From the sequence record OR539216.1: 41,822 nt of DNA; one strand, 5' to 3'. The translations under genes were made by a program, and so were the position numbers. Shown here in pieces: positions 7,413 to 41,217 of the stretch. Each line of letters starts with the position of its first letter. The first letter of the stretch is position 1. This DNA comes from Escherichia phage vB-Eco-KMB41. The notes under the pieces were generated by a model that saw only the letters and a list, made by a program, of their open reading frames with translations, had not been told where the DNA came from and did not search any database.

Positions 7413-7438
7413 AGCCCCCGCGCCGGGGCTTTTTTTTT
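7413..7438 (+). terminator. Plus-sense intrinsic terminator-like hairpin (AGCCCC-loop-GGGGCT + T8) inside a minus-strand operon
   Basis: 6-bp GC stem followed by T8 on the plus strand only; abuts the primase stop codon. Confidence 0.45.
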
Positions 7439-8255
7439 ACCCGAACGCGCCAGCCAGATCTCCCCCTATGCAAGCCCTCCCCGTCCTGTCGTAGCCGTAC
7501 AGGAAAACCTCGTCCGGGTCAGTGTAAACGAACCGGATCTCCCGATCGCCGTCGTAGATCGCCGAAGCCTGGACGGCGTTCATAGGCCGGAACGTCAGCC
7601 AGACCTCCGCCTCCCCTCGCGCCGCCACGTTCACGGCATGAGCCGGATCCGCCACGAGATACACCGGAGCGTCCGGCGCTGGGTGGATCAGTCCGACCGC
7701 GCCCCACGTTGGCCCGCCAGCGGCAAACACCACGGACCTGTCGGAGCCGATCTTCGCAACGTTGCACCACGGCCCCAGGGATCCCCCCAGTGGACGAGCG
7801 CATGGAACATACAGGAAGCCGTCCCGCATCGCGCCTTTAGCCATGACTCGCTCGACGTCCTCCGGGGAGAGTTCCCAGTCCTGCGCGGGCTTGTCCTGCT
7901 GCCGGGCATACTTGCGGGCCTCTTTGACGATCGTCTCCCGCTTCTCCGGGGTGAGTCCGCCTATCCAGTCGCCCAGGTCGTTGATCGCCTCGTTGAACGG
8001 CTGCGATCGGCTGGTCATAAACCAAAACATGCCATCACGAGCGCCACCGCACGAGCCGGAACAGTACCCGAAGCCCTCGGCCTTTTTCGTCTGCTGCTTA
8101 TGGCCCCAGCGAAAGCGATCGGTCCCGCCACAGATCGGGCATGGCTGGTGATTGCCGTTAAACGCCTTGCGGTCCCATCCACAGAGATCGAGGAGCGCCT
8201 GTTCCCATTTGCCGGGCATCGCCGCGAGAACGTCCTCTTTTTTATAAATTGCCAT
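7437..8255 (-). CDS. DNA primase (zinc-binding)
   Basis: N-terminal CPICGG...DRFRW zinc-ribbon typical of phage/plasmid primases plus a second Cys cluster; divergent from the helicase gene. Confidence 0.7.
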   Translation of the reverse strand: MAIYKKEDVLAAMPGKWEQALLDLCGWDRKAFNGNHQPCPICGGTDRFRWGHKQQTKKAEGFGYCSGSCGGARDGMFWFMTSRSQPFNEAINDLGDWIGGLTPEKRETIVKEARKYARQQDKPAQDWELSPEDVERVMAKGAMRDGFLYVPCARPLGGSLGPWCNVAKIGSDRSVVFAAGGPTWGAVGLIHPAPDAPVYLVADPAHAVNVAARGEAEVWLTFRPMNAVQASAIYDGDREIRFVYTDPDEVFLYGYDRTGRACIGGDLAGAFG

Positions 8256-8320
8256 CTTGCCCTCCGTTTCTTTCGCGGTTACTATAAATCATGCTTTAGT
8301 GATATTACAAGGGATAAACA

Positions 8321-33503: not shown

Positions 33504-33576
33504 AAAAAAATCCTCCGTTTATCGCCTGAGTCTCACAGGGTTACGCGGAGGATTATCGGCGGTTACGGAACAGTGA

Positions 33577-38207: not shown

Positions 38208-38508
38208 CAGCGCCCCCTTTCGGCCCCAGTTCCTGGTCGATAAAGTCCTGGGCCATCTCGTCCGCGCTGTCGTGGCGTCCGTCCTGCTCGGCCTGGCGAA
38301 TGGCGTCGATCTGCTTCTGGCGCTGATCAGCCATGAAGCCCTCGACCGCCTGGTGTGCGAGCGCCGTCGCCTGGTTGTGGCTGTAGCCCTGTTTGCGGAA
38401 GCGGTTGAACGCGTTCTCCAGCAGTGAGGCGCGTTGGTTCGGGCCTACATACATACGCGAGATATCCGCGACGGCTGATTTCTTCTCTGCATTGTCTTTC
38501 ATCATCAT
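38200..38508 (-). CDS. hypothetical protein (102 aa)
   Basis: ORF with helical, charged composition. Confidence 0.55.
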   Translation of the reverse strand: MMMKDNAEKKSAVADISRMYVGPNQRASLLENAFNRFRKQGYSHNQATALAHQAVEGFMADQRQKQIDAIRQAEQDGRHDSADEMAQDFIDQELGPKGGADA

Positions 38509-38538
38509 CTCCTCGTTTCTTCGTCGTCGTGACGGGCC

Positions 38539-38727
38539 TCACATCAGGCCCAGCATGTTAAACAGGATCGCCGCGAGTGATATCACGATCGCGCCGATGG
38601 TTGTCGCTACCATCAGGAAGTAATTCCACAATCCGAAGCGCTCGATCCAGTCGTTCGATCGTACTGGTTGAGTGTTCCCGATCGGTGTCCGTCTGGGGAA
38701 TAAAATCACGTTGTTATTGTCGCTCAA
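38539..38727 (-). CDS. small membrane protein (62 aa)
   Basis: C-terminal TM segment (FLMVATTIGAIVISLAAILF); apparent TTG start preceded by AAAGGTGA SD. Confidence 0.45.
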   Translation of the reverse strand: MSDNNNVILFPRRTPIGNTQPVRSNDWIERFGLWNYFLMVATTIGAIVISLAAILFNMLGLM

Positions 38728-38749
38728 ACTATATCACCTTTCAATGATT

Positions 38750-38980
38750 AAATCATGGTTACGTGAGGTTTTCATTAAGCCCTCAAAAAGTGCCAGCAAA
38801 TGGCCCCGGTTACATCATTTAAAATCTGTCACCAAATGTTAGTTAAGTGATTGAATTAAATCCGGTTACATTGCAGGTTTCATTGTCTCAAAAAATGTAA
38901 CTTGCGCTTAACTCGGTTACGGTTACAGGTTACATCTCTCTCTATATAGAGAGAGTGTAACTGTCACCGATGTAACCGGG
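38750..38980. repeat. Iteron-like array: at least 8 GGTTAC/GTAACC hexamers (three in tandem at about 38915..38933), TGTCACC motifs and a perfect 20-bp palindrome CTCTCTCTATATAGAGAGAG (about 38936..38955)
   Basis: Read directly; 255-bp non-coding gap immediately downstream of the AAA_25 ATPase gene; hexamer density far above the roughly 1 per 2 kb expected by chance. Confidence 0.7.
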
Positions 38981-38982
38981 CC

Positions 38983-40638
38983 TTAAAAGTCGTTCAGATC
39001 GTCGTCCTGATCCTCCGCTTTTGAGGATGGTTTCCAGTCCGTCGGGAGTGGCTTCTGATCGCGGATTCCACCCAGGAGCGGAGCCGCTTCTTTCGTGGCG
39101 GTCAGCGTCTCGTCTCCGGCGACCTTGATGATCCCCATCGTGTTAGTGGCGTGAAGGAATGCGCGACGGAATGCCGTCTTGTCGATCTGCGGGTCCGCGC
39201 TGTTCCGCGCCCACTCACTGAGCGCCGCCTTTGTCAGCTTCGGAGTGCGGCCTCTGCGCTTGCTGTTGTACTCGTGGACGAAGTTCACCAGTCGGATCGC
39301 GTTCTCCTCCTGCTGGCTGCGCTTCGGCCCCTCGTCGGCCTTCTCCTCCTTGTCGCCAGTCGGTACAGCCTCCAGCGCGTTAATGACGACCAGCGTCCCC
39401 AGGTTGTCGCCAATCTCCCACGCTGCCGGGTTCTGCTGCGCTTCGGGGCGTACTGGCTTCATGCGGGCCATTGCCTCGCGCTTCATCTTGACCAGTTCAG
39501 GCGGGAGCGGGACGGATTGCGTCCGCATGGCGCGAGGAGGGAGGAGCGCACAGCCTTTCGCCTTCGTGTGCTCAATGACAAAAAGCTCCTTGTCCTTGCA
39601 CTTCTTCACCATGATCTCGAATCCGGCGTTTGCCCGGAGGGTTGACGCGCCACGAGCGCCGCGCTCGGTGTCCTTCCCGGTGTGGTGGATCACCATCACG
39701 GCACAGTTGAGCATTTCCGCCAGCTTCGCCGCGTTCGCCATCAGGATCGCCGCCACGTTGTTGTCGTTCTCGTTGAAGTCCTGCCCGCCTACCCATTCGA
39801 TCACCTTGCCGTCCGCGTCACGCTTCGCGGTCTGGCCCACCTTCTGGCCCGCGCTGTTGGCGCTGTAGGTATCAATGACCACGAGGGCCGGTGCGTTCTC
39901 CTCAATGCCGAAGAACGGGGAGGAGAGGACCTTCCCGGCGAAGCGCTGGAGGATCTCCGCGTTATGGAGGGGGACCTGTTCGCCGATGATAAACAGGTTA
40001 TTCAGATCCTTGTTGCCGTTGCGCTTGTACTTCCATCCCGCGTAACGTTCACGGACGCCGCTCGCATCCTCCGGCGCGAAGTACAGGACGGATCCCTGTC
40101 GGACCGGAAGCCCGGCGAAGTCGATCCCGGTGGCGACACAAATCGCCATCTGTAACGCGCAAAAAGTCTTTTTAGCGCCCGACTCGCCGACCAGGAAGCC
40201 CACGGAGCGCTCCGGGACCAGCGACTGGATCACATAGTTAACGGGGGTGATTTTGTTCCCGGCGCGTAACTTGTCCAGGAACTCGTCCGGCTGGTCTGCC
40301 AGCAGTTCGGCGATCGCCTTCTTGTCCTTCTCGCGCTGGTCCTCTGTCGTCTCGCTGCGTGGCTTCGCGACGGGCTTCTGGTTCTCGTCCAGTACGAGGT
40401 CCCACTGGTGATCGTCCTCATTGTCGCCGAACGCGTAAAGCTCCATCTCCGCCAGTGATAGGCCCTGCTCTGCTGCCTGGTCTGCCGCGATCGCCATCTG
40501 CTGGTCCATGTCCGCCTCTGTCGGCTCCGGCGCTGCGTTCAGCCATTCCGGGACGGGTTCCAGACGAGCCTCGCCTGGGAGGATCTGGTCCAGTAGTTCC
40601 TCGCGGGTCGGTTCCTGCTGTTCTTCGTCGTGCATCAT
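38983..40638 (-). CDS. RecA-fold ATPase of the AAA_25/RepA-like type (putative replication initiator or helicase), 551 aa
   Basis: Walker A GESGAKKT, Walker B LVVIDTYS, downstream VMVIHHTGKD motif typical of RepA-like ATPases; acidic N-terminal ~130 aa; flanked on both sides by GGTTAC repeat clusters. Confidence 0.75.
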   Translation of the reverse strand: MMHDEEQQEPTREELLDQILPGEARLEPVPEWLNAAPEPTEADMDQQMAIAADQAAEQGLSLAEMELYAFGDNEDDHQWDLVLDENQKPVAKPRSETTEDQREKDKKAIAELLADQPDEFLDKLRAGNKITPVNYVIQSLVPERSVGFLVGESGAKKTFCALQMAICVATGIDFAGLPVRQGSVLYFAPEDASGVRERYAGWKYKRNGNKDLNNLFIIGEQVPLHNAEILQRFAGKVLSSPFFGIEENAPALVVIDTYSANSAGQKVGQTAKRDADGKVIEWVGGQDFNENDNNVAAILMANAAKLAEMLNCAVMVIHHTGKDTERGARGASTLRANAGFEIMVKKCKDKELFVIEHTKAKGCALLPPRAMRTQSVPLPPELVKMKREAMARMKPVRPEAQQNPAAWEIGDNLGTLVVINALEAVPTGDKEEKADEGPKRSQQEENAIRLVNFVHEYNSKRRGRTPKLTKAALSEWARNSADPQIDKTAFRRAFLHATNTMGIIKVAGDETLTATKEAAPLLGGIRDQKPLPTDWKPSSKAEDQDDDLNDF

Positions 40639-40664
40639 TGTTTAATCACCTCATGGTTACATTA

Positions 40665-40701
40665 CGGGAGACAATGTAACCGCTATTTGTCACCGCGTCA
40701 A
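40665..40701 (-). promoter_or_regulatory. Sigma70-like promoter (TTGACG-17 bp-TACATT) overlapped by inverted repeat GGTTACATT-N9-AATGTAACC
   Basis: Read on minus strand: -35 TTGACG, 17-bp spacer, -10 TACATT, then AGGTGA SD and ATG of the ATPase; the 9-bp-arm palindrome covers the -10 and start region. Confidence 0.5.
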
Positions 40702-40779
40702 TTCAGCGCCAGTAAAGAAAACTCTTTACATCACGGTTACGTTACCTTAAGGTGATAGCCGAACACGACGGAGGTCATT

Positions 40780-41217
40780 ATGTCACTGTTTGACGATGAA
40801 GCGCCACGCGCCCCACTTCGGGCCAACGTAGCGCCACGTAAGACGCCACAGGAGAGACTCCTGGAGATACTGGAGAAGGTCCGCTCCACCGATCCGTCCA
40901 TCCATGACGCGATCGAACAGGGGAGAATGGATCCTTATCTGCCGACGGTCGAGACGCGGAACGCTTTTCTAACTCTGCGCCCGTCGGAGCAAATATTCGC
41001 GGCGTTCTGGGACTGCCCCGGCGTCGATCGTAAGAAGTTAATGGACCTATGCCGACACGCCGGAAAGATGGAGCGAGCCGGAAAATTACGGGACCTTAAG
41101 GTGGACCGCTCGAAGCTGGCGACCACTGAAAGCGGGATCCCCCCAGGCGTCGAGATTGGCCCGGAGTTGGCCCTCGCCGCACTACAATGCAAGCAAGCCA
41201 TGAGGAAAGAGAGATGA
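40780..41217 (+). CDS. hypothetical protein (145 aa)
   Basis: ORF with GGAGG SD 7 nt upstream, first gene of the rightward unit leaving the divergent control region; the overlapping minus-strand ORF 40935..41798 is rejected. Confidence 0.65.
   Translation: MSLFDDEAPRAPLRANVAPRKTPQERLLEILEKVRSTDPSIHDAIEQGRMDPYLPTVETRNAFLTLRPSEQIFAAFWDCPGVDRKKLMDLCRHAGKMERAGKLRDLKVDRSKLATTESGIPPGVEIGPELALAALQCKQAMRKER

Follow-up and report, generated by a model that had tools for sequence, protein, structure and literature searches.

The 255-bp non-coding gap at 38728-38982 in the genome of Escherichia phage vB-Eco-KMB41 is probably the replication origin of a helicase encoded beside it, a protein that would load itself there and also repress its own promoter. 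This reading draws on comparison with related phages and on structural models. The window analysed is the whole of record OR539216.1, 41,822 bases, a complete Murrayvirus-like podophage genome. The gap lies between the stop of a 551-aa AAA_25 gene, the helicase, and the TTG start of a 62-aa membrane-protein gene. The more specific proposal, to which we give slightly less than even confidence, is that a helicase of the RecA-fold superfamily 4 (SF4) acts as its own sequence-specific initiator: a fused winged helix would read inverted hexamers, and two opposed rings would load themselves at a cruciform-prone palindrome. If this is true, the helicase gene and about 255 bp make up a minimal replicon, in which winged helix, origin and promoter operator are exchanged as a cassette.

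The gap and its two flanking genes contain the following elements.

38728-38982, no strand assigned: non-coding gap, candidate origin, 39% G+C against 59% G+C for the genome.
38539-38727, minus strand: 62-aa membrane-protein gene, TTG start, on the same strand as the helicase gene.
38983-40638, minus strand: putative initiator-helicase gene, 551 aa, with an acidic N-terminal region, a RepA/DnaB-type RecA-fold core, a predicted winged helix and the acidic tail DDDLNDF.
39097-39315, minus strand: predicted winged helix, residues 442-514 (helices 442-460, 470-479 and 487-500; strands 504-506 and 511-514), the proposed repeat reader.
38915-38935, plus strand: first of the two repeat clusters beside the palindrome, GGTTAC GGTTAC a GGTTACAT, with starts 6 and 7 bp apart.
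38936-38955, no strand assigned: palindrome CTCTCTCT-ATAT-AGAGAGAG, made of a pyrimidine run, a TATA centre and a purine run; proposed melting or cruciform centre.
38956-38979, minus strand: opposed repeat cluster on the other side of the palindrome, tGTAAC, tGTCACC (one mismatch) and gATGTAACCgg.
38912-38980, no strand assigned: extended imperfect inverted repeat (repeats, palindrome, repeats), a hairpin of about 30 bp on either strand.
38757-38902, no strand assigned: dispersed repeats, GGTTAC at 38757 and GGTTACAT at 38808 and 38864, with 51 and 56 bp spacing.
38844-38856, minus strand: IHF-consensus-like element ATTCAATCACTTA (consensus WATCARNNNNTTR, one mismatch), between two repeat copies.

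A preliminary description of this DNA had counted at least eight GGTTAC/GTAACC hexamers in the gap. The gap and the array are real, but the exact count is seven: six start on the plus strand (38757, 38808, 38864, 38915, 38921, 38928) and one on the minus strand (38972). Two extra GTAAC pentamers (38897, 38957) and two one-mismatch copies, TGTCACC (= GGTGACA) at 38827 and 38962, complete the set, the first repeat beginning 6 nt past the helicase stop. The dispersed copies in opposite orientation or with one mismatch occupy 38827-38833 and 38896-38902. Other parts of that description stand as given, namely the three tandem hexamers (38915-38933), the perfect 20-bp palindrome, the GTAAC copies mirrored on its other side (38956-38979), the repeated TGTCACC and the AT-rich stretches.

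The enrichment of the hexamer over shuffled sequence, which had been predicted, is also borne out. Across the genome there are 22 copies against 11.45 expected, a number attained in 0 of 100 shuffles, and the seven in the gap compare with 0.09 expected from the genome rate. When the AT-rich gap was itself shuffled 2000 times with dinucleotides preserved, seven or more copies of any hexamer appeared in a fraction of about 0.0005. The longer word GGTTACAT has six copies genome-wide where 0.54 would be expected, four of them in the gap and two upstream of the helicase gene (40655/40674), with none elsewhere.

How are these repeats arranged? On the minus strand, the helicase stop is followed by three repeats, the palindrome, and three opposed repeats 6-7 bp apart. 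Next comes an AT-rich stretch with single and opposed copies, the IHF-like element at +89 from the palindrome centre, and the ribosome-binding site of the 62-aa gene. The single copies in the AT-rich stretch lie about +76, +132 and +183 from the palindrome centre, that is, 51-56 bp apart. The palindrome itself is CTCTCTCTATATAGAGAGAG. The 69-nt repeat-palindrome-repeat unit around it folds as single-stranded DNA at -20.8 kcal/mol (z = -7.3), which none of 200 shuffles matches. The least stable 200 bp of the genome also falls within the gap, with a nearest-neighbour free energy (dG) of -250.9 against a mean of -304.8 and a standard deviation of 11.5, or 4.7 standard deviations below the mean.

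The same layout is found in related phages. The closest deposited relatives are the Murrayvirus phages IME_EC2, sortsyn, Lumpael, sortregn and ST231, followed by the Sortsnevirus phages Sortsne, IME279, sortkaff and Kc237. The region was taken from nine deposited phages and ten metagenome-assembled relatives, giving 16 distinct sequences and, with the window, 17. All 17 follow a common plan in which opposed short repeats, two or three on each side, surround a palindrome directly past the helicase stop, with further repeats and an IHF-like site beyond it; the window's arrangement of mutually opposed triplets around a TATA-centred palindrome is the one seen across the 17 phages. The gap sequences are otherwise not alignable, and the repeat word itself changes from phage to phage.

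GGTTAC(AT): window, P0003 and P0004; P0008 has the same hexamer.
CGTTAC: P0005 and P0006.
GTTAAC / TTAACG: IME_EC2, sortsyn, P0023 and P0009.
TAACAT: ST231 and P0021.
AGTAAC / ATGTTAC: P0007.
GGTAAC: Lumpael, P0016, Kc237 and IME279.
GGTAAC / GGTATC: Sortsne.

In the closest relatives, P0003 and P0004, the single copies keep the same offsets (+76, +132 and +183), and several other phages retain one near +76. A perfect stem of 8-11 bp stands 27-40 nt past the helicase stop in 17 of 17 sequences. Its arms have 11 different sequences, with the 5' arm always pyrimidine-rich and the centre always A/T. Stem and repeat word vary separately: P0005 and P0006, for instance, have the same repeats but different stems. 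This independence points to a structural rather than a sequence-specific role for the palindrome. An IHF-like element with no more than one mismatch is present on the same strand, at an offset of +88 to +90 from the palindrome centre, in 13 of the 17 phages, while the repeats that flank it vary. Its assignment to IHF is an inference from the match to the consensus.

Palindromes of related form occur outside the group of 17. Kc166B and MED16 retain a Y-TATA-R or TAAA palindrome past the helicase gene. In the Pantoea phage MED16, whose fused primase-helicase is 36% identical to the 551-aa protein, a palindrome of about 44 bp centred on CCCTATAGGG lies directly past the primase-helicase gene (about 2760-2810), without repeats. 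The palindrome in the Kc166B gap is CCCCCCCTCTAAAGAGGGGGGGG, and Kc237 holds this same palindrome in addition to its own. Judging from these sequences, a palindrome with a pyrimidine run, TATA and a purine run may be a wider hallmark of the helicase clade. Most relatives have in addition a second hairpin with G5/C5 arms (e.g., AAATCGGGGGTGACCCCCGACAAAATCCCC) between the repeats and the downstream gene (IME_EC2 38480-38540, L006 5590-5650); it is absent from the window and its closest relatives.

What kind of protein is encoded next to the gap? The 551-aa product matches Pfam AAA_25 (E 1.5e-25) and, in a sequence search of the PDB, RSF1010 RepA; NCBIfam has no family for it. RSF1010 RepA (1g8y) is also the best structural match of the full-length model (E 1.2e-10, template modelling score 0.68 on the target), followed by DnaB, RadA and T7 gp4. 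A C-terminal winged helix is placed by two agreeing AlphaFold models, with a hairpin at residues 504-514 and a predicted local distance difference test score of 82-90 in the domain-only model. The near structural matches of this domain are almost all winged helices (MCM4 WH, DtxR/IdeR on DNA, ORC2), with weak E-values of 0.24 or above; searched by sequence against solved structures, the C-terminal domain gave nothing significant. As modelled, the protein has the make-up of an initiator that is a hexameric-type helicase with a C-terminal winged-helix DNA-binding domain. The virion genes of these phages are P22-like, and for replication they encode, besides a zinc-ribbon primase (7437-8255 in the window) and a superfamily 2 helicase, an ERF recombinase, nucleases, a clamp-like protein and SSB.

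Some further features of the helicase sequence and its annotation were noticed. Its Walker A motif (40162-40185, residues 152-159) reads GESGAKKT, with Lys in place of the usual Gly preceding the catalytic Lys. Residues 155 (A), 157 (K) and 158 (T) are the same in all 27 relatives of the alignment, and every close homologue among the phages has Lys at 156. The C-terminus (38983-39010) reads ...EDQDDDLNDF, its terminal Phe conserved in all relatives, and the phage SSB (12637-13185) ends in DFDDDIPF like E. coli SSB. By analogy, the SSB-like tail of the helicase may recruit the same partners, for example the chi subunit of polymerase III or primase. The KMB41 record labels the gene 'cobalt-zinc-cadmium resistance protein'. 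In the IME_EC2 record it is called 'DNA primase' and is also split into two coding sequences (58 and 59, at 38709-40396), probably by a frameshift in that record. The neighbouring 145-aa gene is annotated in Lumpael with an over-long 186-aa start.

Which protein reads the repeats? The helicase alignment has a single hypervariable patch, residues 425-506, and the repeat word changes along with this part of the protein (residues 425-506/465-515) and with a promoter operator 1.7 kb away. Four natural swaps illustrate this: window/P0005, P0008/P0007, P0021/P0023 and ST231/IME_EC2. Within these pairs the helicase cores are 91-97% identical and the winged helices 49-59%, and the repeats differ in each pair. 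Conversely, P0009 and IME_EC2 have the recognition-helix motif TDFFHAFEHATK and the GTTAAC/TTAACG repeats in common, and their N-terminal regions are only 25% identical. In Mantel tests the origin repeats correlate with the winged helix at r = 0.655 (0.63 when controlling for the core) and with the helicase core at 0.41. The predicted winged helix of the helicase is thus proposed as the reader.

Three other candidates were considered and rejected. The small helix-turn-helix (XRE) protein, put forward earlier as a possible binder, has the same sequence (100% identity) in the window and in ST231, two phages with different repeats. The 62-aa product is a conserved membrane protein. The 145-aa neighbour, which has no Pfam match, shows 89-95% identity in three of the swaps and 83% in the remaining one.

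The repeat word recurs at the promoter of the helicase gene, where the following elements were found.

40701-40673, minus strand: helicase promoter, TTGACG-17-TACATT.
40655-40681, no strand assigned: operator, an inverted repeat GGTTACAT-N11-ATGTAACC on the helicase promoter, its first arm holding the -10 hexamer.
40735-40746, plus strand: GGTTACGTTACC in the spacer of a probable rightward promoter (TTTACA 40725-40730, TAAGGT 40748-40753), a possible but weak third binding place.

The operator spans the helicase start site, with ATGTAACC 11 bp past GGTTACAT, and in every relative the word at the helicase promoter is the phage's own gap repeat. Cognate pairs of origin and promoter share 6.7 6-mers against 3.6 for non-cognate pairs (permutation P ~1e-4). 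The Mantel correlation is 0.78 between origin and promoter, 0.605 between promoter and winged helix (0.55 when controlling for the adjacent N-terminus), and 0.36 between promoter and the adjacent N-terminus. Since about 1.3 kb of highly conserved sequence separates the operator from the region coding for the winged helix, linkage alone is insufficient to account for the match between them. The simplest reading of these sequences is that the same domain autoregulates the helicase promoter. At the 40735 site, the -35 hexamer is conserved in relatives, co-variation of the spacer is partial, and the promoter falls under the scan threshold.

Hexamers outside the gap had been reported upstream of the ATPase gene and at three further places. 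They do exist, at 8277, 33539, 33561, 40655, 40676 and 40735, close to but not exactly at the coordinates first given. A role shared with the gap applies only to those upstream of the ATPase gene, which belong to the inverted-repeat operator. The others, at 8277 and 33539/33561, are unchanged in IME_EC2 (gap repeat GTTAAC) and in Lumpael (gap repeat GGTAAC); these copies have flanks that give GGTTACT and GGTTACG without the extended GGTTACAT. The first lies in a promoter spacer and the other two in a conserved hairpin upstream of a 184-aa gene, so they are parts of other conserved elements and there is no genome-wide master operator. Of the two roles first suggested for the gap, origin or master operator, it is the origin that the layout in 17 phages and the co-variation with the winged helix best support.

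Two further observations concern the sequence around these words. The last repeat ahead of the 62-aa gene (38716-38760) and the one ahead of the helicase gene (40639-40660) share the context GTAACCATGA...(A/G)AGGTGAT. In Sortsnevirus genomes the ribosome-binding site, AGGAG, is separate and follows the conserved block ATCATTGAnAnGTGAT, which is therefore not simply a Shine-Dalgarno sequence.

How might such an origin work? What the analysis shows is the anatomy of the gap, how far it is conserved, the folds assigned to the protein and the joint variation of repeats, winged helix and promoter operator; binding, melting, ring loading, directionality, autoregulation and a part for IHF are deduced from these. 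We suggest that the 551-aa protein is both initiator and replicative helicase, and that its C-terminal winged helix would recognise the 6-8 bp repeats (GGTTACAT in this phage). The opposed repeat triplets would seat helicase subunits head to head, flanking the DNA that melts most easily in the genome. The TATA centre would then open or extrude as a cruciform, allowing one ring to load on each strand and replication to proceed in both directions. The outer repeats, about five helical turns apart, together with the IHF-like bend site, may help to wrap the origin. No DNA polymerase is annotated or was detected among the phage proteins scanned; the separate zinc-ribbon primase and host polymerase III would take over. 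At the helicase promoter, the same domain would occupy the inverted pair that covers the -10 and the start site, and the protein would in this way limit its own synthesis. Characterised RepA/DnaB-type rings move 5'-3'. With this polarity, each ring leaving the centre would first travel the purine run, and the leading-strand templates would present the pyrimidine run, perhaps as a favourable primase template or R-loop anchor, although this last suggestion is speculative.

Several points weigh against a self-loading origin. The known self-loading initiator-helicases are AAA+/SF3 (superfamily 3) or MCM-like, while RepA/DnaB-type rings normally need a separate initiator or loader; the mechanism proposed here is therefore extrapolated across helicase classes. 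The gap adjoins the region coding for the winged helix, and a single recombination could move both, which partly confounds their co-variation; the Mantel tests likewise retain phylogenetic structure. The winged-helix call itself comes from models built on shallow alignments (22 and 27 sequences) and from structural matches with weak E-values. More distant relatives of the helicase differ: ChibiTotoro has no gap past the gene, and MED16 has the palindrome only. Cumulative GC skew, which was to be checked for an inversion at the gap, shows none there; it gives no support and has its minimum at 40903, at a divergent promoter; here GC and AT skew track the coding strand and so cannot locate the origin. 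Finally, a literature search found nothing on phage KMB41 or on the origin of this phage group, and no report of experimental binding, melting or origin function for it.

The main alternative is that the gap is purely a transcriptional control region, at which the winged helix or another factor represses or roadblocks transcription from the helicase gene into the early genes, with replication starting elsewhere. The inverted pair of the same word over the -10 of the helicase promoter does suggest that the reader has a regulatory site, and the gap separates two co-oriented gene blocks. Control of read-through is conceivable, as no terminator-like site was called in the gap by a terminator scan and the sole sigma-70-like match touching it (38744-38716) lies over the start codon of the 62-aa gene; for this overlap, the match was set aside as a working promoter. 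However, nine to eleven sites, opposed triplets, a palindrome conserved in structure, the genome's least stable DNA and an IHF-like site are more than an operator needs. The predicted DNA-binding domain is moreover fused to a replicative helicase, and it is generally known that autoregulation by an initiator usually accompanies iteron origins and is no alternative to them. A role confined to transcription is thus unlikely.

Alternatively, the hairpin might act as RNA in a read-through transcript, as a processing site (e.g., for RNase III), a stabiliser or an atypical terminator. Compensatory changes that keep the stem, so that 11 different arms are all perfectly paired, would be expected of such an element, as would the strong folding of the 69-nt inverted repeat and its location on a probable polycistronic transcript. 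On neither strand, however, is the stem followed by a T-run, as it continues into ATGTAACC or TGTAACTG and does not have the form of an intrinsic terminator; no terminator was called, and the gap has no match to an Rfam family. All 17 stems use Watson-Crick pairs only, with no G-T pairs, as expected of a DNA palindrome. An RNA element would also leave unexplained the dispersed copies at set offsets (exact only in the closest relatives), the copies at the promoter and the co-variation with a protein domain, which together make this explanation quite improbable.

It is very hard to credit that the gap is a packaging (pac/cos-like) or recombination site, with the small terminase binding the repeats and the palindrome as the cut site: the GenBank records of Kc237 (MW258710), Sortsne (MK651787), IME279 (MF614100) and Kc166B (MW258711) do begin in or beside the gap, and cos and pac sites in general, such as lambda cos, likewise bring together a symmetric cut site, IHF sites and repeats that bind protein, but the four records start at different distances past the helicase stop (234, 135, about 532 and 130 nt, respectively), IME_EC2 and ST231 are deposited as circular, Lumpael starts elsewhere, the terminase genes are 5-6 kb away, and the repeats co-vary with the helicase domain and with nothing near the terminase. 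Given these inconsistent starts, beginning a record in the gap is probably a convention and not a mapped genome end, and a physical end in the gap was set aside; no end-mapping data were found for the four records.

How does the proposed self-loading origin compare with known systems? The closest parallel in layout is found in the Staphylococcus aureus pathogenicity islands (SaPI), where Rep is a helicase-initiator with a C-terminal winged helix (Ubeda et al. 2007, 2012, cited after PMC9371898). Directly past the rep reading frame come six to twelve iterons of five or six nucleotides; they surround an AT-rich centre, with at least two per side in opposite directions, and related elements differ in specificity (PMC9371898). 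The phage gap agrees with this published description on nearly every point of layout: in its iteron count and its site downstream of the helicase, in its opposed iterons and AT centre, in the predicted C-terminal winged helix and in its element-specific words. In contrast to SaPI Rep, whose motor is AAA+ (SF3/MCM-like, 3'-5'), the phage motor is a RecA fold of the RSF1010-RepA/DnaB-like type (SF4). The phage differs further in having a perfect palindrome as centre, with pyrimidine/purine asymmetry, and a cognate operator on the helicase promoter, and the element is a lytic coliphage rather than a satellite. Because the motor is not of the AAA+ SF3/MCM-like class, the phage protein is an analogue in layout and not a homologue of SaPI Rep. 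By this analogy, the gap is filed as working like a SaPI-type self-loading origin, outside that protein family, and as neither a classical iteron origin nor, as far as the genes next to the gap show, an IncQ origin.

The IncQ plasmid RSF1010 is closest in the helicase itself, since its RepA (1g8y) is the nearest structure to the phage core. Its oriV likewise joins initiator-binding repeats, an AT-rich stretch and hairpin palindromes on each strand (ssiA/ssiB), and its primase is separate. RSF1010 RepA has 279 aa and no DNA-binding domain, and is loaded after RepC has melted oriV; the primase is RepB', and the iterons are direct repeats of about 20 bp. By contrast, a recognition module is predicted to be fused to the phage helicase. 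RSF1010 RepA, a bare core, depends on the separate initiator RepC (PMC8965321). No RepC-like gene adjoins the phage gap, whose neighbours encode the small membrane protein and the 145-aa protein; this negative applies to the surroundings of the gap and not to the entire proteome.

P4 alpha and pRN1 ORF904 each unite several replication functions in one protein and bind short origin words through a C-terminal winged helix; in P4 the word is the octamer TGTTCACC, in direct and inverted copies. Unlike the phage helicase, both are SF3 helicases fused to primases, and the P4 origin (ori, crr) lies apart from the gene and depends on a second cis region. The origins of SV40 large T and papillomavirus E1 have opposed penta- or hexamers about 6 bp apart by a palindrome and an AT tract, and nucleate two head-to-head hexamers. 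These proteins differ from the phage helicase as SF3 motors of eukaryotic viruses, with an origin-binding fold that is not a winged helix. For pRN1, the origin is reported to lie in the 166 bp downstream of the replication gene (PMC4234260).

Classical iteron plasmids (pSC101, R6K, P1, F, RK2) and the lambda ori have repeats specific to their initiator, an AT-rich region for unwinding and an IHF site, all with putative counterparts in the gap. Classical iteron initiators also repress themselves through inverted half-repeats at their own promoters. Unlike the phage, the classical origins have 17-22 bp, helically phased direct iterons, a non-helicase winged-helix initiator and DnaA boxes, and recruit host DnaB. 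The gap repeats are 6-8 bp long, in both orientations and clustered 6-7 bp apart, not direct tandem repeats of 17-22 bp about two helical turns apart, and the DnaA box TTWTNCACA, with up to one mismatch, has no match in the gap.

In textbook accounts, rings of the DnaB/RepA class are motors that can neither find nor open an origin alone and rely on DnaA/DnaC, lambda O/P or RSF1010 RepC. Helicases that read origins are, to our knowledge, known only from the unrelated AAA+ class, as in SV40 T antigen, papillomavirus E1, P4 alpha and SaPI Rep. If the phage helicase does initiate at the adjacent repeats, the one-protein solution would have arisen independently on another motor fold, its origin following the same scheme of short repeats opposed across an AT centre. 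The gap is the first candidate origin for Murrayvirus and Sortsnevirus phages. It would offer a practical system, with E. coli K-12 as host, a candidate origin of 255 bp and at least six natural specificity variants on near-identical backbones for swaps and orthogonal replicons.

Two minor observations concern other parts of the genome. The hairpin AATCCTCCG...CGGAGGATT at 33505-33565, which contains both conserved GGTTAC copies, is followed by a T-run on the minus strand and overlaps the ribosome-binding site of the 184-aa gene. It is also present in IME_EC2, Lumpael, Sortsne and IME279 and, from its sequence, may act as a terminator or in the control of translation. Simple base composition predicts about 150 GATC sites in 41.8 kb; there are 487, and none lies in the 255-bp gap. 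CGATCG is found 69 times against 32 in dinucleotide-preserving shuffles, and the phage encodes Dam-like and Dcm-like methyltransferase genes.

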